Shown one piece after another: positions 2,166 through 63,330 of a stretch of DNA of 64,000 bases. How positions within the stretch are numbered: the first letter of the stretch is position 1; each line of letters starts with the position of its first letter. The notes beneath the pieces were generated by a model. The model was not told the origin of the DNA and did no database searches. It worked only from the letters and a program-made list of their open reading frames with translations. The stretch spans positions 76,774 to 140,773 of the forward strand of contig NVWO01000004.1 in assembly GCA_002746255.1 (NCBI GenBank), in the 5' to 3' direction. Source of the stretch: Rhodospirillaceae bacterium. GTDB lineage: Bacteria; Pseudomonadota; Alphaproteobacteria; GCA-2746255. The translations under genes were made by a program, and so were the position numbers.

Positions 2166-3349
2166 CCGGTGGGCATGGCCCGGATGCCGGGCCGCTTTTC
2201 TTCATCATCGCAGGCGAGCCTTCAGGCGATTTGCTGGGCGCGCGTCTGATGGCGGCGCTTCGTGAGCGTTTGGGCAAAGGCGTCCGTTTTTACGGCATTG
2301 GTGGCGAGGGGATGTTGCGGGAAGGGCTTGAAGCCCTCTTTCCAATGCGGGACATTGCCCTTATCGGGATTGCGGAAATCTTGCCCCATCTGCCGTTGCT
2401 TCTGCGGCGAATTCGCGAAACGGTTGCGGCGATCAAGACGGCGCGGCCCGTTTCCCTGATTACAATCGATACGCCAACCTTCAGCTATCAGGTTGCGCGC
2501 AGGCTAAAGGGTTCGGGGATTCCGGTTGTCCATTACGTGGCGCCTCAGGTCTGGGCCTGGAAACCGCGCCGTGCGAAAAAACTTGCCCGTGTGAATGATT
2601 TGTTGCTCACGCTGCTTCCTTTCGAGCCACCAATCTTTAAGAAGGAGGGTCTTCCCAGCATCGCCGTCGGCCACTCGGCCATTGAATCGGGTGCAGGTAC
2701 AGGGGATGGGCCATATTTTCGGGAACGGCACAACATTCCGCCGCTTTCCCCGGTGATTGCCATGCTACCAGGAAGTCGCCATTCTGAAACTTCACGGCTG
2801 CTGCCGGTCTTTGGTGATGCGCTTGCCTTGCTGCGGGTCCGCTATCCACGATTGCATGCGGTTGTACCAACCGTCTCGGTCGTTGAGGAAGAAGTTCGAA
2901 CGGCAACAGCCAACTGGCCGGTGCCGACGATCGTCATAAAGAACGATGACGAAAAATGGGATGCCCTGTCTGCCAGTGAAATTGCCGTCGTTGCCTCCGG
3001 TACGGCGACCGTCGAAGTCGCGCGAGCCGGCCTTCCGATGGTGGTCACCTATCAGGTTAATCCGGTTACCGCCTGGCTCCTTCGTCGCATGTTACGCATT
3101 CCCTACGTCGCGCTCGTGAATGTTATTTTGAACCGGGAAGTCTTACCGGAGCTTCTTCAGGAAAACTGCAACCCAAAAATGCTGGCGGACAGCCTGATCC
3201 GCCTGCTACAGGATCCGGCGGCCCGCGAGTTGCAAAAACGTGACGTCAAAGAAGCGCTTCTGCAATTGGGGGAAGGGGATGAACTTCCTTCAAGACGCGC
3301 TGCGAGTGCGATTCTCGAATTTTTAGAAAAACGGGCAGCTTCTAGCTAG
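2162..3349 (+). CDS. lpxB: lipid-A-disaccharide synthase LpxB
   Basis: 395 aa with the GT19 N-terminus FFIIAGEPSGDLLGARLM. Start overlaps the lpxI stop (ATGA). Confidence 0.9.
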   Translation: MTGGHGPDAGPLFFIIAGEPSGDLLGARLMAALRERLGKGVRFYGIGGEGMLREGLEALFPMRDIALIGIAEILPHLPLLLRRIRETVAAIKTARPVSLITIDTPTFSYQVARRLKGSGIPVVHYVAPQVWAWKPRRAKKLARVNDLLLTLLPFEPPIFKKEGLPSIAVGHSAIESGAGTGDGPYFRERHNIPPLSPVIAMLPGSRHSETSRLLPVFGDALALLRVRYPRLHAVVPTVSVVEEEVRTATANWPVPTIVIKNDDEKWDALSASEIAVVASGTATVEVARAGLPMVVTYQVNPVTAWLLRRMLRIPYVALVNVILNREVLPELLQENCNPKMLADSLIRLLQDPAARELQKRDVKEALLQLGEGDELPSRRAASAILEFLEKRAASS

Positions 3350-3383
3350 ACGGCTGGCCTTTTATGGGGTGAGGCGTCGCCGT

Positions 3384-4694
3384 TTATTTGCGTTTTTCGA
3401 CGGGGACAAAGCTGCGTTCCGTGGCACCGGTGTAAAGCTGTCTTGGGCGCCCGATTTTCTGTTCCGGATCCTCGATCATTTCCTGCCATTGCGCAACCCA
3501 GCCAACCGTGCGCCCAAGGGCAAACATGACGGTAAACATGGAGGCTGGAATTCCCATCGCTTTGAGAATAATGCCGGAATAGAAATCGACATTTGGAAAG
3601 AGTTTTTTCTCAATAAAATAGTCGTCTTCAAGGGCAATGCGCTCAAGCTCCATCGCCAGTTCCAGAAGGGGCTCGTTTTTTACGCCCAGATCGTCAAGCA
3701 CCTCGTGAGCCGATCCACGAAGGACGGCGGCACGTGGGTCATAGTTTTTGTAAACACGATGGCCAAAACCCATGAGGCGAAACGGGTCGTTTTTATCCTT
3801 CGCACGCTTGATAAATTCTGGCACGCGATCTTTCGATCCAATTTCCTGCAACATGTTGAGGACGGCTTCGTTTGCGCCGCCATGCGCAGGTCCCCAAAGT
3901 GAGGCAATTCCAGCCGCGATACAGGCATATGGATTGGCGCCGCTCGATCCGGCAAGGCGCACGGTCGAGGTTGAGGCATTTTGCTCGTGATCGGCATGAA
4001 GAATGAAAATCTTATCCAAGGCGTTGGCGAGCACCGGGTTTTTCTTATAATCTTCGCAAGGTACCGCAAACATCATACGAAGCGTGTTCTCGCAATAGCT
4101 CAGATCGTTTCGTGGATAGATGAATGGTTGTCCAAGCGAATATTTAAAGGCCATTGCTGCAATCGTCGGAAGTTTTGCGATAAGACGATGCGAAGCAACC
4201 ATCCGTTGGTGAGGATCGTTGATATCGAGGTTGTCGTGATAGAAGGCGGCAAGCGCACTTACGACGCCGCAAATTATGGCCATTGGATGTGCGGCACGTG
4301 GAAACCCGCGTAAGAAAAAGCCGATCCGTTCATCCACCATCGTGTGGTAAGTGATGTTGTGTTCGAATTCCTCTTTTTGCGTGGCGTTTGGAAGTTCCCC
4401 GTGAAGCAGTAGATAGCAGACTTCCAGATAATCGCTTTTTTCGGCAAGTTCCTGAATGGGATAGCCGCGGTAACGCAAGATGCCTGCTTCACCATCGATG
4501 TAGGTGATCTTTGAGCGGCAACTGGCTGTGGACGTGAAGCCAGGGTCGTAGGTGAAGCAGTCAGTCGTGGCGTATATCTTGCGGGCATCAATCACGGATG
4601 GCCCGTCCGTACCGTCAAAAACCGGCAGTTCGTATTTATCGCCTGTCCGATTGTCGATGAGGGTAAAAGAAGGCTCGGTCTGCTTTTTATTCAT
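3384..4694 (-). CDS. gltA: citrate synthase (type II)
   Basis: 436 aa. Hallmark segments [14 protein letters not shown] and the N-terminal [18 protein letters not shown]. Confidence 0.93.
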
Positions 4695-4709
4695 TCCTGT
4701 TTGTCCTTG

Positions 4710-4733
4710 CCTCTAGATAGACAGCCTCTAGAT
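4710..4733. promoter_or_regulatory. direct repeat CCTCTAGAT (x2, 15-bp periodicity) immediately upstream of gltA
   Basis: CCTCTAGATagacagCCTCTAGAT lies 16-39 nt upstream of the citrate synthase start codon (minus strand). Each unit contains the palindrome TCTAGA. Confidence 0.25.
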
Positions 4734-4830
4734 CTGTGTCGTAGCTCACCCTTCATCAAAGGCTTTTTCTGCCTCGTTTTATGCGTGACAAGCCTGTTCG
4801 AAGGGAAAAATTTTCAGCCCGTAATCTATC

Positions 4831-6231
4831 CTAGGGGAGGACATCACGCAAACGATTCAGCACCTCGGCCTTGCCAAGAATAGCCATAACCTCAAAGATT
4901 CCAGGCGATGCGTTGCTGCCCGTAAGCCCTGCCCGCAGGGGCTGGGCCAGTTTTCCGAGTTTTATGCTATCGGCTTCAGCCAAATCCTGGATTGCCGCTT
5001 CCAGAGCGTCCTCTTTCCAGGAATCAAGTTCGGTAAGTCTTGCGGCGATCTTTGCGAGATATGCCTGCCCTTCCTCATTCAGTAATTTTTCCGCTTTTTT
5101 ATTCAGCGGGATCGGATGGCTGCGAACATAGAACGTGGCATTTTCGGCAAGTTCGTTCAGGTCTTTTGCGCGTGCTTTCAATCCCGGCATTGCGAGAAGA
5201 AGCCGCTTCTCGTTCTCGGTTGTAAGTTTTTTATCAAGAACGCCTTCTATTTTTGGGGCAATCAGCCCAACAAGCCGCGCGTCTTTCTCTTCGCGCAAAT
5301 AATGGCCGTTCAGATTTTCTAATTTTTTTAGATCGATCCTCGCAGACGAGCGACCGACGGCATCCAGGCCAAACCATTCGATGGCCCGGTCCGTTGGGAT
5401 AATTTCCTCGTCACCGTGGCTCCACCCAAGGCGAAGAAGATAGTTGCGAAGCGCTTCTGGAAGGAAACCCATTTCCCGATACGCGTCGACCCCGATGGCG
5501 CCGTGGCGCTTGGACAGTTTGGAACCATCGGGCCCATGAATGAGGGGCAAATGGGCAAATTTTGGAGTCGGCCACGACAAAGCGCGATAAATCTGGGTCT
5601 GGCGAAAGGCGTTTGTCAGATGATCGTCCCCCCGGATGACATCCGTAATTCCCATATCGTGGTCATCAACCACAACGGACAGCATATAGGTTGGGGTGCC
5701 GTCGGCACGCAGCAGCACCATATCGTCCAGTTGCGCGTTTTCGACGGTCACATCTTTTTGAACAAGATCGTGGATAAGGGTTGTTCCATCGAGAGGGGAC
5801 TTGAAACGGATGGTTGGTTTTACGCCCGCTGGCGCTTCCGATGGGCCGCGGTCTCGCCAGCGCCCGTCGTAACGGACAGGCTTTCCTTCCCGTTTTGCCG
5901 TTGCCCGCATTTCCGTAAGTTCTTCTGGGGAACAATAGCAATAATACGCCAATCCGTTTTTAAGCAGCTCATTTGCTATTTCGATATGGCGATTCGCTCG
6001 CAGGCTTTGATAGACGGGCTCTTCATCGGCGTCCAATCCCAGCCAATGCAGCCCGTCGAAGATCGCATCAACGGCTTCTTTCGTAGAGCGCAAACGGTCC
6101 GTGTCCTCAATGCGAAGCAGAAAGGAGCCACCGTGGTGGCGTGCATAAAGCCAGTTAAACAGAGCGGTTCTGGCACCTCCAATATGGAGGTAACCGGTTG
6201 GACTTGGGGCAAAACGCGTGATGATAGACAT
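4831..6231 (-). CDS. gltX: glutamate--tRNA ligase
   Basis: N-terminus [23 protein letters not shown] (HIGH-class signature) and KLSKRHG (KMSKS). Start placed at the internal Met; the ORF track extends 14 codons upstream to 6273. Confidence 0.9.
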
Positions 6232-6317
6232 GCTTCTCGACAGGTGTAAGGAATGCGTAAGCTGTGATTTCATATGGGTTTAGCATATTGAAAGCACTTG
6301 CAGTAGGGCTGGCATAA

Positions 6318-8525
6318 ATGATTGTGAAGGACAGCGACATATCCTTTGATGTTTCGGCGAAGGGCCGTTCTTTCGGCCAGCGTTTCATGCAAGCGGTCGC
6401 CGGGAATTTGCTGGCCGAGCGCGAAAACTGGCAATTGTGGCTGCCGGTTGGCTTGGGCCTTGGGATTGCAATCTATTTTTCCCTGGGCTTTGAGCCATCG
6501 CTGTGGGTTGCCCTTCTGCTTGCAGGGGGCCTGTTTCTGGGTATCGTCCTTTTGTGGAATCGCGGTGTCTGGTTCATGCTTTTTCTTGCCATTGCCACCA
6601 TCGGCATTGGTTTTTCTGCAGCGAAAATACGCACGTTTCTTGTTGCTGCGCCATTTCTCGAGGAAGAAACCGGAATGGTTTCTATCGAAGGGAGAATCGC
6701 GCATTTTGATGTTCTCCCCAATGGCTTTCGCGTCACCCTTCACGACGCCCGGATCGAAGGAATTGCTCCGGAAGCCACGCCGGAAAATGTGCGCATTCGT
6801 CTTCGCAGGGATCAGCAGCGGGCACCCCTGCGTATTGGTGAATGGGTGCGCGTTCGCGGCATGCTTTTGCCGCCACGTGCACCGACGGCACCAGGGAATT
6901 TTGATTTTCAGCGCCACGCTTTCTTCAAAGGTCTAGGGGCCGTTGGCTTTGCCATCGGCCCCCTTGAAGCGGTTGCCGAGAAAAATGTCGCTGAGGCAAA
7001 TACGGATGATCGCCTCTTTAAAAGCGAAGTTGAAAAATCCCGCCAATGGATTTTTGATCGCGTCGTGGACGTGCTGCCAGGTCAAAGAGGGGCGGTTGCT
7101 GCCGCGCTCATGACTGGAAAGCGAGGGGCGATTGCCGAAGATGTGTGGCAGGCGATGCGGAATTCAGGCCTTGCCCATCTGCTCGCCATTTCCGGTCTGC
7201 ATATCGGCCTTGTTGCCGGTATTCTGTTTGTCGCCATGCGTGCGCTTCTGGCTTTGGTTGAGCCTCTGGCGCTGCGCTACCACATCAAGAAATGGGCTGC
7301 GGTCGTCGCACTTTTCGGGGCTTTCGGTTACCTCATTTTATCTGGGGGGACCGTTCCGACCCAACGCGCATTTTTGATGATTGGTTTGGTTCTGCTTGCC
7401 GTTCTGTTGGACCGGACGGGGATTTCCATGCGCCTGGTCGCCTGGGCGGCTGTTGTTATTCTTCTGTTGCAGCCAGACACCCTGCTTGGCGCGTCCTTCC
7501 AGCTTTCCTTTGCCGCCGTGATCGCTCTGGTTGCTGTCTACGAGGCCATTCGTCGGGTGTGGATCAGGAGAAAAGCGGCAGGTGGAGTGCTTCGCCGCGT
7601 CGGCCTTTACCTGGGGGGGGTCGGGCTGACGACCCTGGTTGCCGGCATGGCTACAGCGCCCTTTGCCGTTCAGCATTTCAACCGCTTTGCCGAATACGGG
7701 CTGGCGGCCAATCTGGTTGCCGTACCAATCACCGCCCTTTGGATTATGCCGTGGGCCGTTCTGGCGTTTCTCCTGATGCCGTTTGGCCTTGAACCGCTTG
7801 CCCTGGTTCCAATGGGGTGGGGCGTTAACGCCGTGATCGAGACGGCGAAGATAGTGGCGGGATGGCCGGGTTCCGTTGCCCTTCTACCATCCATGACGAT
7901 GGCGGGTCTGGCGACGTTTACCCTTGGGGGGCTGTGGCTTTGTCTTTGGCGGCAGCGGTGGCGTTATTTCGGGCTTGTTGGCATTGCCGCAGGGCTGGCG
8001 ACGATAGGGTTTTATCGGCCACCGGATATTCTTGTTTCCGAGAATGCGAAACTTTTCGCCGTACGGGCAGACGTGGACGGGTATCGCTTTTCCTCGCGGC
8101 GGGCGGCGCGGTTTTCCGGGCGGGACTGGCTGCGTCATGCGGGCGAAACGGATGTCCTGCCGTGGCCGAAGGAAGGGAAGAGCGAGGATGGCCGACTTGC
8201 CTGCGATAGTATGGGATGTATCTACCGCGTGCGTGGACAGATGGTTGCGCTCGTTTTCGAGCTTGGCGCCTTGGCCGAAGATTGCACCCTGGCCGACATG
8301 GTGATTAGCCGGGTGCCGGTACGTGACGGCGTTTGCCGGGGGGTTGATGTTGTGATTGACCGCTTCGACCTATGGCGAAAGGGCACACACGCAATTTGGC
8401 TTGATGAAGAGAAGGTGCGCATTCGCAACGTGCGTGACATGCGTGGGGAGCGACCGTGGGTGGGAGGCCCCAGAAAACGTGCCCGACGACGCGGGGCGAC
8501 GAAGGCACGCGTCGAAAAAAACTAG
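6318..8525 (+). CDS. comEC: ComEC/Rec2 family DNA internalization channel protein
   Basis: 735 aa polytopic membrane protein with the competence-domain HLLAISGLHIGLVAG motif. Contains an in-frame G8 homopolymer at 7613-7620. Confidence 0.85.
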   Translation: MIVKDSDISFDVSAKGRSFGQRFMQAVAGNLLAERENWQLWLPVGLGLGIAIYFSLGFEPSLWVALLLAGGLFLGIVLLWNRGVWFMLFLAIATIGIGFSAAKIRTFLVAAPFLEEETGMVSIEGRIAHFDVLPNGFRVTLHDARIEGIAPEATPENVRIRLRRDQQRAPLRIGEWVRVRGMLLPPRAPTAPGNFDFQRHAFFKGLGAVGFAIGPLEAVAEKNVAEANTDDRLFKSEVEKSRQWIFDRVVDVLPGQRGAVAAALMTGKRGAIAEDVWQAMRNSGLAHLLAISGLHIGLVAGILFVAMRALLALVEPLALRYHIKKWAAVVALFGAFGYLILSGGTVPTQRAFLMIGLVLLAVLLDRTGISMRLVAWAAVVILLLQPDTLLGASFQLSFAAVIALVAVYEAIRRVWIRRKAAGGVLRRVGLYLGGVGLTTLVAGMATAPFAVQHFNRFAEYGLAANLVAVPITALWIMPWAVLAFLLMPFGLEPLALVPMGWGVNAVIETAKIVAGWPGSVALLPSMTMAGLATFTLGGLWLCLWRQRWRYFGLVGIAAGLATIGFYRPPDILVSENAKLFAVRADVDGYRFSSRRAARFSGRDWLRHAGETDVLPWPKEGKSEDGRLACDSMGCIYRVRGQMVALVFELGALAEDCTLADMVISRVPVRDGVCRGVDVVIDRFDLWRKGTHAIWLDEEKVRIRNVRDMRGERPWVGGPRKRARRRGATKARVEKN

Positions 8526-56546: not shown

Positions 56547-56685
56547 TACAATGTCACACGCTTAAATGGATCCACTGGCCGGATGTTTGTGCCACAGGAA
56601 CACAGGCCACCGCAAATTCTGGCAAGCTTTACGGTGGCACATGCCCAGAATCAGGATAGATTTGAGAACTGATTGGAGGAAAAGG

Positions 56686-57492
56686 ATGAAACGCCGCCTC
56701 ACCTTGCAAGCCATTTCCGCCCTTTCTGTCCTTTTGGCGATGGCTTTGCCGATGGCGCCAGCCTATGGCGAGGAAGGCACGCATTTCTTTAAATTAGGGA
56801 CGATCTTCCTCCCCAGAGCACTGACGCCCGAAAAAATGGTGGCGCTTCGCCACGAAGCCGCTGAACAGGGCGATCCGGGTGCCCAGTTTCGATGGGCCGA
56901 ACGCCTCTATAAACGCGTCAAACAACAACGCGCGATGCCTGCGGCAAAAGGCCGCGAAACATTTTTTGAGGAGGCCTTTTTCTGGTACGTGCAAGCCGCC
57001 GATCAGGGACATGCGGGGGCACAACGCCGTATAGCCGATTTCCACGCGACGGGTGAAGGCATCACACGCGATCCGAATAAATCGGCCCACCTCTACCGTC
57101 TTTCTGCGGATCAGGGCGACGCGCGCGCCGAATTGCGGATGGGTGTGCTCAACGAGGAAGGCCTGGGTCTACCGGCAAATCTTGAAAAAGCTATCTATTG
57201 GTACGAACGCGCTGCCAGGCGGGTCGCCTTTGCCAAAGTGGCCAATGTGGCGCGCTATCGCCTGGGAAAAATCCTTGCAACCACGCGCCAGAAGAAAAAC
57301 ACGCTCATTGACGCTTATATGTGGTTCGACCTTGCCGCAAAAAAAGGCCACAAGGAAGCCGATATGGAACGGCTAAAAATAGAAAAACGTCTGTCACTTG
57401 CACAGATTGTGAAAGCGAAGAAGCAGGCCCGTCAATGGACCAAAGGCCTGGAAAGCGCACAGGAACCGCTAACAAAGAAAAGCCCCTGGTGA
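56686..57492 (+). CDS. Sel1-repeat (TPR-like) secreted protein
   Basis: Internal ATG with a GGAGGAAAAGG SD. Signal peptide, then repeated Sel1 units (GDPGAQFRWAERLY, GHAGAQRRIADFHATGEG, GDARAELRMGVL, KAIYWYERAA). Confidence 0.75.
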   Translation: MKRRLTLQAISALSVLLAMALPMAPAYGEEGTHFFKLGTIFLPRALTPEKMVALRHEAAEQGDPGAQFRWAERLYKRVKQQRAMPAAKGRETFFEEAFFWYVQAADQGHAGAQRRIADFHATGEGITRDPNKSAHLYRLSADQGDARAELRMGVLNEEGLGLPANLEKAIYWYERAARRVAFAKVANVARYRLGKILATTRQKKNTLIDAYMWFDLAAKKGHKEADMERLKIEKRLSLAQIVKAKKQARQWTKGLESAQEPLTKKSPW

Positions 57493-57809
57493 ACCGACCC
57501 CTGCCTTGGGAAGGTTGGTTAGAAAATCATCCCCAGCCAATGCAGCATTGGCCAGGCGGCGGAAGAAAAGCAGTGGATTTAACATCTTAAAAATTAATCT
57601 GTAATCACCTGATTTTAAAAAATAAATTTTACACACATCAAGCGCAACCCCCTGACAAACCCTTGCCGGTGATGCATGCGAAAATGGGCTACCCATAAGA
57701 CATATTGGCCTAACCCATACGGATAGGAAAACCGCCGGAATCCCTGAAAATTCAGCCGCGTAGATTCCCTTGGCAGGATTTCGCTTCCTGTGTAAAATCG
57801 AGAGGAAAT

Positions 57810-57929
57810 ATGAAGTCCGTTCTGGAAGTACGTGTAACCTCTAAAATAAGCGGTTATATTTCGCTTGGAATTAGGCGTCCGCAATCGGTGGCCCGAAGTC
57901 TTTATGCACTTTTGCCGCTGTTTAAATGA
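57810..57929 (+). CDS. candidate small ORF (39 codons) upstream of the orphan hypothetical gene; speculative
   Basis: ATG preceded by GAGAGGAAAT. Translates to MKSVLEVRVTSKISGYISLGIRRPQSVARSLYALLPLFK. Stops 27 nt before the next gene. Below the 60-aa cutoff of the ORF track; no homology claim. Confidence 0.2.
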   Translation: MKSVLEVRVTSKISGYISLGIRRPQSVARSLYALLPLFK

Positions 57930-57956
57930 GTGTCTCACCCATAGAGAAAGAAACCC

Positions 57957-58946
57957 ATGATCACCGCAGAAGATATGAAATTTCATAAACCCACCAGCGA
58001 CGACCCTGAGTGGGCAGAAACAAACTACTTCCCCTTCCATATCGAAGAAGCCGGCATTCAGATGGCCGCCTATGTCCTGACGCGCCCCAATCTTGGCGTC
58101 GTGCTTGCCGATGTCTTTGCGTATCAGGGTTCAAACCCAAGCCCGACGACCGCGCTTTATTATGACAAGCATGTCCACCTGCCAATCCAGGACAAGCTGG
58201 AAGATTATACCCTTGGGCTTGCAGGCGGTCTTTCCATTAAAGCCGTCAACGCGCCGATGGATTATCAAGTGGACTATGTCGGCTATGACGACACGGAATA
58301 CCACATTTACTACAAAGGCCTTAGTGAGCCTTATGACATTCATGACCCCAAGCAGGACCCGATTACTGCTGAAAACATGCAGAAGGAATCGAGCGACAGC
58401 TGGGGAAAAGGTGCCTATGCCGGGCATTTTGATCAATCGGCCCATGTCACAGGCGAAGCCAAAATTCAGGGCAAGTCTTACAAAGTCGATTGCATCACGA
58501 CGATGGACCACAGCTGGGGCCCACGCAGTGAGATGGCAATTCCAAACATGGCTTGGTTTCATGCCCATTTTGGCGAGGATTTGGCCATTCACTGCATCGC
58601 TTACATTGATCCGATCAACACGGACAAAGTTGGCCCAGTGCTTCATGGCTATGTCGTCGAAAACGGCAAACTTTACGGGATCGCCAAAGGCAACGGTCGG
58701 ACGACGCGTGAGCATTTGCTGCCAACGGGCATTGAGATGTCTGTGACCGATTCACGTGGCAAAACGTTCAACTTCGTCGGCAAGTCCGTTTCCACCTATG
58801 CATGGTTTGCGTGGCCAGGCCTCAATGTTCAGAGCGCACTTCTAAAATGGGATTGCGACGGCCGCACCGGCTGGGGCGAAACCCAGGACTGCCTCAGCAT
58901 GCGCTACGTCTGCGAGGCAAACCAAAAGATGATCAAAGCCGCGTAA
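57957..58946 (+). CDS. hypothetical protein, no recognisable family (cytoplasmic, no signal peptide)
   Basis: 329-aa ORF with an AGAGAAAGAAA SD-like stretch. Lower GC than its flanks. Followed by a strong terminator and tRNA-Ser. Internal WGPRSE and WGETQD segments suggest a two-lobed fold, but I recognise no conserved catalytic motif. Confidence 0.6.
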   Translation: MITAEDMKFHKPTSDDPEWAETNYFPFHIEEAGIQMAAYVLTRPNLGVVLADVFAYQGSNPSPTTALYYDKHVHLPIQDKLEDYTLGLAGGLSIKAVNAPMDYQVDYVGYDDTEYHIYYKGLSEPYDIHDPKQDPITAENMQKESSDSWGKGAYAGHFDQSAHVTGEAKIQGKSYKVDCITTMDHSWGPRSEMAIPNMAWFHAHFGEDLAIHCIAYIDPINTDKVGPVLHGYVVENGKLYGIAKGNGRTTREHLLPTGIEMSVTDSRGKTFNFVGKSVSTYAWFAWPGLNVQSALLKWDCDGRTGWGETQDCLSMRYVCEANQKMIKAA

Positions 58947-58979
58947 CGCCAATAGCCTGGCGCAGGCTTGTTCAAACAA

Positions 58980-59014
58980 CCGGAGGGAAAACAACTTCCC
59001 TCCGGTTTCTTTTG
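58980..59014 (+). terminator. rho-independent terminator after the orphan hypothetical gene, just upstream of tRNA-Ser
   Basis: Perfect 10-bp stem CCGGAGGGAA/TTCCCTCCGG with loop AACAAC, then TTTCTTTTG. A second small hairpin AGCCTG-gcgc-CAGGCT lies at about 58953-58968. Confidence 0.75.
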
Positions 59015-59058
59015 CGCTAATTCGCAAAAACGGGAAGATTGTCGATAAACTACCCCCT

Positions 59059-59148
59059 GGATGGGTGGCCGAGTGGTTGAAGGCACCGGTCTTGAAAACC
59101 GGCAGGCCCGCAAGGGTCTCGTGGGTTCGAATCCCACCCCATCCGCCA
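59059..59148 (+). tRNA. tRNA-Ser (anticodon UGA), class II with long variable arm, CCA encoded
   Basis: GGATGGGTGGCCGAGTGGTTGAAGGC...GGTTCGAATCCCACCCCATCCGCCA. 7-bp acceptor stem, anticodon stem CCGGT/ACCGG with loop CTTGAAA (anticodon TGA), a long extra arm and a T-arm GGTTCGAATCC. Confidence 0.92.
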
Positions 59149-59445
59149 GTTATCTGTTTGCGCCTGTTCCTGCTTAGGCAGGATGCCATCCGCCTTCAAG
59201 GCGGAACCCGACTGCACAATCATGACGATGCGTCCCATGGCGTAAAGCACCCCTTTGTTTTCTGAAATGGCATCGCTATATTCCCTGCGGTTCCGCTCCC
59301 TCGACGGCCTGTATACCAAAGGGCTTTCGTGCGTAGGGCTGGTTAGGGTTAATCCCTTCCTTCCCACCGGGGCCGTTTTTTAAAATTCCCCCATAAACAA
59401 AGAGAGTCCGCGCTCTCCAGGAACAATCACCATGGCGAGATTCTC

Positions 59446-61542: not shown

Positions 61543-63189
61543 CTATTCCTTGTTAATGAAGGCCGCGATTTCCTTGCCCAGGGTTTCGGATTGCTGGGAC
61601 AGCTCGCTTGCAGCTTCCAGCACCTGTCCGGCGGATTGGCCGGCTTCGTCGGCGGCGGCAGCCACCTGCGAGATGGTGCCGGTCACTTCCTGGGTTCCGG
61701 TGGCGGCCTCCTGAACGTTGCGACTGATCTCAGAGGTCGCAGCGCCCTGTTCCTCGACGGCCGAGGCGATGCTTGCCGCAATCTCGTTGATCTCCTTGAT
61801 GGTCGAACCGATGCCCTTGATGGCGCTGACGGCTTCCCCGGTGGCACCCTGAATGGCGCTGATCTGATTGCCGATTTCCTCGGTCGCCTTGGCCGTCTGA
61901 TTGGCCAGATTCTTGACCTCGGAAGCCACAACCGCAAAGCCCCGACCGGCGTCGCCGGCGCGCGCCGCCTCGATGGTGGCGTTCAGGGCCAGCAGATTGG
62001 TCTGGCCGGCGATGTCGTTGATCAGGCTGACGACGTCGCCGATCTTCTGGGCCGCTTCGGCCAGGCCTTCGACGGTGACGTTCGTCTCTTCCGCCTGGGT
62101 GACGGCGTTCTGGGCCACTTCCGAGGATTTTGAGACCTGACGGCTGATTTCCGAGATCGAACTCGACAGCTCTTCGGCCGCCGCAGCGACCGTCTGGACG
62201 TTCGTCGTCGCTTCTTCGGCGGCGGCGGAAACCGAGGCGCTTTGCTCGCTGGTGCGTTTGGCAATCGACGACATCTCTTCGGCCGAGGCCTGCAATTCCG
62301 TCGAAGCCGACGCGACGGTTTGAACGACTCCCTTCACATGCCGTTCGAAATTGTTTGTCATGGTAACGATGTTCGTAATCACGCTCCAGGACAGCATGGG
62401 GCCGATATAGCCGCCATCTTTGTCCATGATGGCGGAAACCTTTAGATCCAGGGTCTCGTCGCCGATCTGGATGCGCGCCTGATGGGGCAGGTTCTTGGGA
62501 TCGGCGAGCAGCTTGCGCTGATGGGTCGGGTTTTTGTGGAAGATGTCGATGCATTGACCAAGCAGGGCATCGGCCTTGACCGGCAGCAGATGTTCCAGGG
62601 TTTTCAGGGTATCGATGCTGGTCTGGTTGATGTAATTGATCTCGAGCGTCTTGGGATCGCACATCATGACGTTGATCGGCATGTTGTCGACCATCTGGGT
62701 CAGACGTGCCGCATCCGCGTCCAGTTTTACTTTCTCGGTAATGACGCTCCAGGACAGCATGGGGCCGATGTAGTCGCCGTCTTTGTCCATGATGGCCGTG
62801 ACGAGAAGGTCCAGGGTCTCATCGCCGATCTGGATATGCGTCTGATGGGGCAGGTTTTTGGGATCGCCCAGCAGCTTGCGCTGATGCGATGGGTCTTTAT
62901 GAAAAATATCAATGCATTGGCCAAGCAACTCGTCGGCCTTGACCGGCAGCAGATGTTCCAGGGTTTTGAGAGTGTCGATGCTGGTCTGGTTGATGTAGTT
63001 GATCTTTAAATCGACCGGATCGCAGGTCATGACGTTGATCGGCATGGTGTCGATCATCTGGCGGAAATTTGCAAGCTGCTGTGCGATATCTTCGTATCGT
63101 TGCTCGCTGTTTGTTACGGTCGCCGATTCTTGCTCATCTATCGGTGTTTCGATTTCCTCTACCGCCAATTCTTGCCTATTCGTCTTCAT
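61543..63189 (-). CDS. soluble methyl-accepting chemotaxis protein with two tandem near-identical PAS domains
   Basis: Start at an internal Met with a GAAGGA SD (the ORF track extends to 63279). No TM segments. PAS repeats ~121 aa apart. C-terminal MCP signalling domain (LLALNATIEAARAGDAGRGFAVVASEVKNLA). Confidence 0.85.
   Translation of the reverse strand: MKTNRQELAVEEIETPIDEQESATVTNSEQRYEDIAQQLANFRQMIDTMPINVMTCDPVDLKINYINQTSIDTLKTLEHLLPVKADELLGQCIDIFHKDPSHQRKLLGDPKNLPHQTHIQIGDETLDLLVTAIMDKDGDYIGPMLSWSVITEKVKLDADAARLTQMVDNMPINVMMCDPKTLEINYINQTSIDTLKTLEHLLPVKADALLGQCIDIFHKNPTHQRKLLADPKNLPHQARIQIGDETLDLKVSAIMDKDGGYIGPMLSWSVITNIVTMTNNFERHVKGVVQTVASASTELQASAEEMSSIAKRTSEQSASVSAAAEEATTNVQTVAAAAEELSSSISEISRQVSKSSEVAQNAVTQAEETNVTVEGLAEAAQKIGDVVSLINDIAGQTNLLALNATIEAARAGDAGRGFAVVASEVKNLANQTAKATEEIGNQISAIQGATGEAVSAIKGIGSTIKEINEIAASIASAVEEQGAATSEISRNVQEAATGTQEVTGTISQVAAAADEAGQSAGQVLEAASELSQQSETLGKEIAAFINKE
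62374..63045. repeat. intragenic tandem duplication (2 x ~310-360 bp) encoding two near-identical PAS domains of the MCP
   Basis: Protein segments MPINVMTCDP...SWSVIT and MPINVMMCDP...SWSVIT are about 85% identical and 121 aa apart. The DNA-level repeat is obvious by eye (for example GTCTCATCGCCGATCTGGAT.GCG.CTGATGGGGCAGGTT in both). Confidence 0.7.
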
Positions 63190-63330
63190 GGTTGCTGATC
63201 CTTCTCGATGCGATCCCTTGGATTCTGCAGTCATTACGGTCCGGCGGTGTTTCTTCCTGGCGTTGTTCCAGCAGCACAAAACACGTAATGGTTGAATGAT
63301 GAGGTCACTATCTCGCGTTAATCCTTAATA

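Follow-up and report, generated by a model that had tools for sequence, protein, structure and literature searches.

In the anaerobic degradation of sterols, a tertiary alcohol is dehydrated via a phosphoester by a kinase of the phosphotransferase family, 25-hydroxysteroid kinase (25-HSK), and a separate lyase (PMC8449060, PMC11061730); the 25-HSK gene is not linked to the gene of this lyase (PMC8449060). In Mycobacterium tuberculosis, Rv3168 and Rv3169 form one operon that is repressed by the TetR regulator Rv3167c (PMC5340868), and the structure 3ATT represents Rv3168 (PMC3691515). Carotenoid 1,2-hydratase and kievitone hydratase are reported to be cofactor-independent and to act on tertiary prenyl carbons (PMC5805349, PMC3145076). 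The present analysis concerns a gene on a 64,000-nucleotide (nt) stretch of DNA from a Rhodospirillaceae bacterium (assembly GCA_002746255.1, contig NVWO01000004.1, positions 76,774 to 140,773), which is termed the window in the following. This gene (57957-58946, plus strand, ATG start) encodes a protein of 329 amino acids (aa) with matches to the Pfam families DUF7065 and DUF7064, and had been regarded in a first-pass annotation as an orphan of horizontal origin. The overall best explanation, with a probability of about 0.55, is that it is the vertically inherited lone survivor of a tandem array and encodes a C-O lyase resembling 25-phosphosteroid lyase (25-PSL).

The first-pass annotation could not place the gene product in any family, but the protein passes the gathering scores of two Pfam models. 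DUF7064 (PF23212) is matched by residues 194-308 with 55.4 bits (gathering score 24.7, E 1e-14), and DUF7065 (PF23213) by residues 149-190 with 35.9 bits (gathering score 27, E 1e-8), the latter alignment covering only the last 42 profile positions. These two gathering scores are also passed by 90 and 82 of 95 relatives, and neither family has an assigned function in Pfam. A word-indexed search yielded at least 336 homologues down to about 37% identity, and an exhaustive HMMER search, for which a profile was built from 60 sequences, gave 1,603 cluster representatives at the 50% level (E<=1e-3). Two peptide motifs alone retrieved 512 loci from species-representative genomes, which belong to the Alpha-, Beta-, and Gammaproteobacteria, the Actinomycetota, and the Dormiibacterota and include many Porticoccaceae/Cellvibrionales with several copies per genome as well as Paraburkholderia and Caballeronia. 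The closest genome is a metagenome-assembled genome (MAG) named 'uncultured Rhodospirillaceae bacterium', whose protein is 97% identical. The NCBIfam model Rv3169_fam (NF053593) is matched in the motif region only, with 23.8 bits (E 2e-5), and its cut-off of 150 is not reached; 83 of the 95 family members likewise match this model below its threshold. Judged by these profile scores, the window protein is a member of a sister subfamily to Rv3169_fam, which has the motif MDHSWGPR and falls under the same Pfam families. This subfamily does not contain any experimentally characterised member, so that the earlier designation of the gene as a candidate for an undescribed function survives. In Porticoccaceae (e.g., L063, 5924-6805, minus strand) and in many gammaproteobacterial clusters, a second, divergent DUF7065/DUF7064 paralogue of 294 aa is encoded on the opposite strand next to threonyl-tRNA synthetase and a Y_phosphatase3 gene.

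Neither a signal peptide nor a transmembrane segment was found in the 329-aa protein, in agreement with the first-pass annotation; its maximum 19-residue Kyte-Doolittle mean is 1.2, the N-terminus is acidic, and a cytoplasmic location is predicted. The AlphaFold2 model, which was built on an alignment of 60 sequences (pLDDT 94.4, pTM 0.92), consists of two all-beta domains and a C-terminal helix, and almost certainly represents an AttH/CrtC-like double beta-barrel. In a Foldseek search against the PDB, the best matches were the 25-PSL structures 9g4c, 9fzn, and 9g2i (E 5e-12 to 3e-11, query-normalised TM-score 0.65-0.68), with about 365 aligned columns spanning both domains. These were followed by kievitone hydratase (7a0t; E 2e-9, TM-score about 0.54, root-mean-square deviation (rmsd) about 7 Å) and, further down, by the Diels-Alderases Phm7 and CghA with their relatives (E 1e-7 to 1e-6) and the AttH protein NE1406 (2ich). 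A diverse profile of 95 family members also reached 25-PSL among the PDB sequences (E 1.1e-8) and, with lower significance, kievitone hydratase (E 1.5e-3), while the single protein and the narrower 60-member profile did not match any solved structure. Pfam CrtC did not match the window protein even at E<=1.

The profile match to 25-PSL runs via the motif D-x-[SQ]-W-G. The window sequence M183-D-H-S-W-G-P-R190, encoded at 58503-58526 (plus strand) and without variation in 60 homologues, aligns with R-D-R-S-W-G-V-R-P of 25-PSL, and Y-D-R-Q-W-G of kievitone hydratase is found at the same place. D184, W187, and R190, all invariant in the 60 homologues, correspond to Asp, Trp, and Arg of 25-PSL. 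The deposited 25-PSL sequences differ exactly at this Asp, which is replaced by Asn in the structure with bound product and phosphate (9g4c). The depositors therefore apparently took this residue to be catalytic, and MDHSWGPR is the presumed catalytic centre of the window protein. A 98-aa piece of 25-PSL alone scores 135 bits against Rv3169_fam, and 25-PSL thus belongs to this family. A search of the available literature on the structure and mechanism of 25-PSL and on DUF7064/DUF7065 returned only pathway papers, in which the lyase is unknown or putative. In the anaerobic breakdown of the cholesterol side chain, 25-PSL is the phosphate-eliminating counterpart of 25-HSK, and the source organism of the enzyme in these structures is presumably Sterolibacterium denitrificans.

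The gene neighbourhoods of more distant relatives provide a functional context. Neighbouring genes were called and scanned at 46 loci encoding proteins of 40-45% identity, and a hidden Markov model (HMM) for the adjacent kinases was applied to 78 loci. APH-family kinases account for 38 of 134 downstream neighbours, and with the dedicated HMM one or two kinase genes were detected just downstream at 46 of the 78 loci, always on the same strand. Upstream, a Y_phosphatase3 gene is present at 17 loci, an ABC exporter at about ten, and a further paralogue at 11. Two architectures recur, namely Y_phosphatase3 followed by DUF - 188 aa - APH - APH, and ABC exporter - DUF - APH - ACAD - ACAD, in which ACAD denotes an acyl-CoA dehydrogenase. 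A gene for a HAD hydrolase lies directly 3' in Paraburkholderia, an Actinomycetota MAG, a Rubrobacteraceae contig, and Bradyrhizobium, in the latter together with PPDK/PEP-utiliser proteins. The APH neighbour is most similar in the PDB to Rv3168 of M. tuberculosis (3ats/3att, E 3e-22), followed by 9fsg (E 3e-16) and the kinase domain of ACAD11 (E 6e-13). The entries 9fsg, 9ft5, and 9fu5 are deposited as a 379-aa 'aminoglycoside phosphotransferase-like protein' under codes near those of 25-PSL; this protein may be 25-HSK.

A further association is found in Castellaniella defragrans 65Phen (HG916765.1, locus positions 3328-8245), where the co-directional genes TetR - APH - 182 aa - DUF7064 - Ldi lie inside a 70-kb monoterpene island and correspond by gene order to CDM25276 to CDM25272. 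The DUF7064 protein of this strain is 41% identical to the window protein, and the APH protein CDM25275, annotated as 'acyl-CoA dehydrogenase', is induced on alpha-phellandrene (PMC4109377). The 182-aa and 188-aa partner proteins are homologous to each other (E 5e-13). A second uncharacterised partner is a protein of 470-514 aa that has no Pfam match and recurs beside DUF7064 genes (L094, 8489-9898; L026, 9872-12842; L018, 6443-7987). The versions from Bradyrhizobium and from one MAG each of the Alpha- and Gammaproteobacteria show 47-67% identity, and in Bradyrhizobium the gene is accompanied by HAD and PPDK/PEP-utiliser genes. The window protein agrees with kinase-linked gammaproteobacterial homologues at all 22 of the most highly conserved positions, so that its chemistry is unlikely to differ from theirs.

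The history of the gene can be followed in closer relatives. The identical protein is encoded on four metagenome contigs with the same neighbours. In the window, the locus is anchored on the left by a Sel1-repeat gene (56566-57492, plus strand; Pfam Sel1, E 9e-22) and on the right by tRNA-Ser(UGA) (59059-59148, plus strand; ARAGORN; Rfam tRNA, 63 bits), and the position of this tRNA directly downstream of the gene had been recognised correctly before. The order Sel1-[gene]-tRNA-Ser(UGA) is found in all relatives with enough flanking sequence (L006, L014, L016, L011, and L012). The Sel1 gene occupies the same position in L001, L006, L008, L011, and L012, and the tRNA gene lies 3' of the array in L001, L005, L006, L011, L012, L014, and L016; L005 retains only the adjacency of gene and tRNA. 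Among these related alphaproteobacterial MAGs, the slot holds one to four tandem paralogues, which a neighbour-joining tree divides into four orthogroups, A to D, with the window gene in A. Since each orthogroup spans several genomes, the array is older than the clade. The arrangement is Sel1 - B - A' - tRNA-Ser - ABC-F in L006/L007 (nucleotide identity of the flanks about 95%), Sel1 - B - A - tRNA-Ser in L014 (about 88%), and, in L005 (about 81%), A - tRNA-Ser with an ars island behind it. More distant flanks accompany A-B-C-D - tRNA-Ser in L016 (about 71-76%), B-C-D ... tRNA-Ser in L011 (about 71-77%), B-C-D-D in L012/L013 (about 69-79%, short matches), and A-B in L008 (about 69%). Judging from these arrangements, the copy number has fallen or risen since the origin of the array, and the window and L005 keep A alone.

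The identity of the gene-A proteins follows that of the flanks, with 97% for L014 and 86% for L005. The allele of L006 is an outlier, with 75% aa and 63-81% nt identity in the comparison with window positions 57493-58960, despite flanks that are about 95% identical. Because the identity of the window gene tracks its flanks, the odd allele is that of L006 and not that of the window, and allelic replacement or gene conversion at the slot is suggested for L006/L007. Both haplotypes, the window type (L004) and the L006 type (L007), are present in JGI metagenome 3300033050. Between the A genes of the window and L014, 45 synonymous and 11 non-synonymous codon differences were counted, and this excess of synonymous differences indicates purifying selection.

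The slot beside the tRNA is structurally unstable, and an ars island, an IS1595 element, and a methyltransferase have been inserted nearby in relatives. In L005 (3258-5393; MAG contig JAJFGH010000129.1), ArsR - ArsC(LMWPc) - Acr3(SBF) lies directly 3' of tRNA-Ser(UGA), at the place where the window has the ABC-F gene; the latter is absent there in L005. In L012/L013 (1356-6696), genes for a glycosyltransferase-41/TPR protein, an N6 DNA methyltransferase, and an IS1595-family transposase are located between Sel1 and the DUF7064 array.

The conspicuous spacer of 464 bp between the Sel1 gene and the DUF7065/DUF7064 gene can also be explained by the array. Spacers in the window are indeed mostly short, as stated in the first-pass annotation, with a median gap of 38 bp, and the next longest true ones measure 329, 283, and 251 bp. 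Two apparently larger gaps are artefacts of greedy picking of open reading frames (ORFs) and are filled by real ORFs, which makes the 464 bp the longest true spacer of the window. Its left part (57548-57732, plus strand) is homologous to the Sel1-B intergenic region of relatives, with 68% nt identity between 57548-57723 and L006 3383-3550, and ends in the ribosome-binding region of B, TAGGAAAAC, which matches L014 just 5' of the B start. A remnant of B itself follows at 57733-57763 (plus strand), as local alignments show with the beginning of B in L006 and with its end in L014. Its 5' portion of about 22 nt, CGCCGGAATCCCTGAAAATTCA, is a degenerate version of the first approximately ten B codons, and its 3' portion, GCCGCGTAG (57755-57763), equals the final two codons and the stop codon of B in L014, which carries an intact 329-aa B gene at this position. 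For the right part (57764-57956, plus strand), the homologous sequence in L014 is the intergenic region between B and A; from 57764 on, the window follows the L014 sequence behind the B stop codon, and identity climbs to 88-96% near and into gene A. This part contains a sigma-70-like promoter candidate, TTGGCA-17 nt-TAAAAT (57770-57798), which was the best in the scan (10/12) and is kept in L014, followed by a leader of about 155 nt with a weak ribosome-binding site. Conservation of the upstream region is limited to the closest relative. The deletion scar is visible at the nucleotide level only, and a tblastn search of the spacer with eight paralogues did not reveal any translated remnant better than E 0.2. 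For both spacer and leader, a riboswitch or other structured RNA was considered and rejected, as no Rfam match besides the tRNA was obtained and the fold z-score was -0.94.

From the collinear matches to L006 and L014 it follows that the spacer consists of two AT-rich intergenic regions joined by a near-exact loss of B. The sequence comparison thus makes it very probable that a tandem paralogue was deleted from a vertically inherited locus and left the spacer as its scar; the length of the spacer is not a mark of foreign DNA. In the lineage of the window, the gene accordingly appears as the sole survivor of an old array, of which up to four paralogues are present in this clade of Rhodospirillaceae-like Alphaproteobacteria. 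Gene A would be driven by its own promoter in the retained B-A intergenic region.

Regarding function, a C-O lyase or hydratase-type enzyme is likely from both sequence and structural model. Fold and motif, combined with the recurrence of phosphoryl-transfer genes in the neighbourhood, make a phosphate-eliminating C-O lyase the most coherent function for the family; elimination of phosphate in particular is plausible for the window copy, if only tentatively assigned. The assignment to the family, the fold, the alignment of the motif, the synteny and the scar, the purifying selection, and the neighbouring kinase or phosphatase genes of distant relatives are results of the analysis, whereas the activity as an enzyme, the class of substrate, phosphate as the leaving group, and the roles of single residues are inferred as follows. 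The product would be a soluble enzyme, with no sign of a cofactor requirement, that cleaves (or forms) the bond between oxygen and a tertiary or allylic carbon in a hydrophobic substrate of the isoprenoid type, which would be bound between the two barrels. Within the invariant motif, D184 would act as acid/base, the aromatic residues W187, W283, Y39, and Y232 could stabilise a cationic transition state, and H10, H157, H185, R190, and R43 could hold the leaving group. The latter would most likely be phosphate put on by a separate kinase, resulting in an ATP-dependent dehydration as with 25-HSK and 25-PSL. For the window copy, this kinase would be encoded elsewhere than beside the gene.

Several observations weigh against this explanation. 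The resemblance to 25-PSL is remote, with 12-13% identity in the structural alignment, and 25-PSL was missed by the single-sequence search and the narrower profile. The subfamily-invariant residues H157 and D159 are replaced by Arg and Ala in 25-PSL, so that the chemistry or the leaving group may differ from that of 25-PSL. The assignment as a phospho-lyase is derived from homologues with just 40-45% identity, and the kinase linkage is dominated by Porticoccaceae/Cellvibrionales, so the 46 of 78 loci do not represent separate events; three other architectures, those of Castellaniella, M. tuberculosis, and the HAD/PPDK-type clusters, lend independent support. In the window and in the array loci of the clade, neither a kinase, as searched with the HMM of the APH neighbours, nor a phosphatase was found, and the 182-188-aa and 470-514-aa partner proteins were not detected there by tblastn. 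The same superfamily also includes pericyclases and hydratases that do not depend on phosphorylation. With respect to the history of the locus, the B remnants in the scar are short (about 22 nt degenerate and 9 nt exact).

The absence of a kinase gene in the window and in every alphaproteobacterial array locus would be expected for a cofactor-independent hydratase or dehydratase of the CrtC or kievitone hydratase type, which adds or removes water directly at a prenyl-type double bond. Such an enzyme would share its fold with kievitone hydratase and AttH, the family profile reaches kievitone hydratase through the same D-x-x-W-G motif, and the Castellaniella homologue directly adjoins Ldi, another water-eliminating terpene enzyme. 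This explanation is nevertheless unlikely, since the protein does not match Pfam CrtC and is nearer to 25-PSL than to the hydratases in both structure and sequence. Furthermore, its key residues are the same as in homologues tightly linked to APH kinases and phosphatases, and an anionic leaving group would fit the large number of conserved His and Arg residues. Even less probable is a function other than C-O cleavage on the same fold, either as a pericyclase or isomerase like Fsa2, Phm7, and CghA or as a non-catalytic carrier of hydrophobic ligands. The Foldseek matches to Phm7, CghA, and related pericyclases and the lipocalin-like fold are compatible with such a role, but these matches rank lower (TM-score 0.48-0.59, rmsd 7-9 Å), no polyketide or nonribosomal peptide synthetase genes are located nearby, and about 20 invariant polar residues, including the Asp common with 25-PSL, favour acid/base catalysis over passive binding.

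A horizontally acquired orphan in a small tRNA-associated islet, as proposed in the first-pass annotation, is highly improbable. The AT-rich composition of the upstream spacer was confirmed (GC content 0.455 in contrast to 0.559 for the window), while the supposedly low GC content of the gene turned out to be a weak argument: the value of 0.524 is slightly low but within the range of window genes (0.50-0.63), and the GC content at third codon positions (0.615) is typical of them. The variability of the slot in L005 and L012 and the divergent L006 allele within nearly identical flanks would also suit an islet. Against this, gene and tRNA are syntenic across the clade with flanks from about 95% down to about 70% identity, the outlier allele is not that of the window, the deletion of a paralogue accounts for the spacer, and the family is large. 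An integrase was not found among the nearby ORFs, the 3' end of the tRNA does not occur a second time in the 64-kb window even with three mismatches, and other meaningful repeats are not present around the gene. The former statement that this is not a classical tRNA-integrated island therefore holds, as the gene lies 5' of a tRNA whose 3' end is unique in the window. Conserved synteny, homology to an enzyme family through the Pfam models, the AttH/CrtC-like fold, and the profile similarity to 25-PSL, together with normal third-position GC content and the lack of an att repeat, leave both 'orphan' and 'horizontal origin' unsupported. Synteny and enzyme-family homology are also the two results that the first-pass annotation had named as evidence against its own interpretation. 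The gene itself is functional and was inherited vertically, and the family to which it belongs is known but uncharacterised.

Downstream of the gene, a terminator-like hairpin (58978-59007, plus strand) consists of the stem arms AACCGGAGGGAA and TTCCCTCCGGTT and a loop of 6 nt, and is followed by the T-rich tail TCTTTTGC; the hairpin described in the first-pass annotation is thus present, but its stem comprises 12 bp and not 10 bp. A match to the small RNA sX4 at 59048-59206 was rejected because its 30 bits are far below the gathering score of 70 and it merely overlaps the tRNA. Two minus-strand ORFs, 57615-58040 (141 aa) and 57469-57696 (75 aa), overlap the spacer or gene start and were judged spurious on position alone. 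The Sel1 gene is preceded by divergent cell-wall genes encoding an SLT_2 lytic transglycosylase, an RlpA-like DPBB/SPOR protein, and a PBP5-type carboxypeptidase. In its longest form, the Sel1 ORF begins at 56566, only 19 bp from the divergent SLT gene, and encodes 308 aa; on an identical metagenome contig, the Sel1 gene was called from the equivalent of window position 56686 with 268 aa. At 61543-63279 (minus strand), the window encodes a 578-aa methyl-accepting chemotaxis protein with an internal duplication of about 326 nt, whose copies are 85% identical and represent two PAS-like modules. Within this gene, after 62276, the window diverges from contig L001, to which it is otherwise identical; in L001 the gene is called at only 250 aa and followed by adh_short and mfd.

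For the window, a false lead is removed, as the gene is neither foreign nor unplaceable and its spacer has a simple history. The main value of the locus lies at the level of the family and does not arise from any oddity of the locus itself, as the two Pfam families gain a concrete biochemical hypothesis, the elimination of phosphate from activated alcohols of hydrophobic compounds. This hypothesis is based on the convergence of a solved lyase structure, the shared motif, the kinase and phosphatase neighbours, and the ldi and Rv3168-Rv3169 contexts. It is tentatively proposed that DUF7065/DUF7064 proteins supply the missing lyase in a widespread two-step system for the dehydration of unreactive, in particular tertiary, alcohols, which are first phosphorylated and then lose the phosphate by elimination. 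In such a system, a kinase of the APH type (or PPDK type) would work together with an AttH-like phospho-lyase, often accompanied by an accessory protein of about 185 aa, and the substrates could be terpenoid, steroid, and other lipid alcohols. Examples could be the Castellaniella genes next to ldi, the multi-copy clusters of marine Porticoccaceae, and Rv3168-Rv3169. The window gene would then be a stand-alone member with an unlinked kinase acting on an endogenous or environmental isoprenoid alcohol, and the arrays of one to four copies in its clade might reflect diversification of substrates. If this is true, Rv3168, now a 'putative aminoglycoside phosphotransferase', would have to be reassigned as a kinase of lipid or steroid alcohols, and ATP-dependent dehydration would extend beyond a single anaerobic steroid degrader to many bacteria that degrade hydrocarbons and terpenes.

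Among the described systems, the fungal decalin Diels-Alderases (Phm7, CghA, and Fsa2-type enzymes; 7e5v, 6kbc, 7dmo, 7e22) have the overall two-barrel fold in common with the window protein. In contrast to the latter, they belong to polyketide biosynthesis, for which nothing comparable is encoded near the window gene, and they show only 8-11% identity with rmsd values of 7-9 Å. The CrtC-type hydratases, kievitone hydratase (7a0q/7a0t), and AttH (2ich) have the same double-barrel fold; however, the window protein is not matched by Pfam CrtC, the structural similarity is lower, and kievitone hydratase is a fungal enzyme. ACAD10 and ACAD11, which act on 4-hydroxyacyl-CoA, follow the same sequence of alcohol phosphorylation and subsequent phosphate elimination (PMC11342911). 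In these proteins, the elimination is catalyzed by an acyl-CoA dehydrogenase domain and not by an AttH-like protein, and nothing of this kind is encoded in the window, whereas the APH neighbours of the family match the kinase domain of ACAD11 and some clusters additionally contain acyl-CoA dehydrogenase genes. The window protein remains below the cut-off of the family of M. tuberculosis Rv3169 and represents a separate subfamily, but the pairing of APH and DUF proteins recurs in its relatives, and their kinase is closest to Rv3168. The comparison with 25-PSL is the closest one. Although 25-PSL falls within Rv3169_fam and neither steroid degradation genes nor a kinase were seen by the window gene, both proteins have the two-domain fold and the D-x-S-W-G-x-R motif in common and are linked by the family profile, and the division of labour between kinase and lyase in the 25-HSK/25-PSL system is matched by the APH linkage of the homologues of the window protein.

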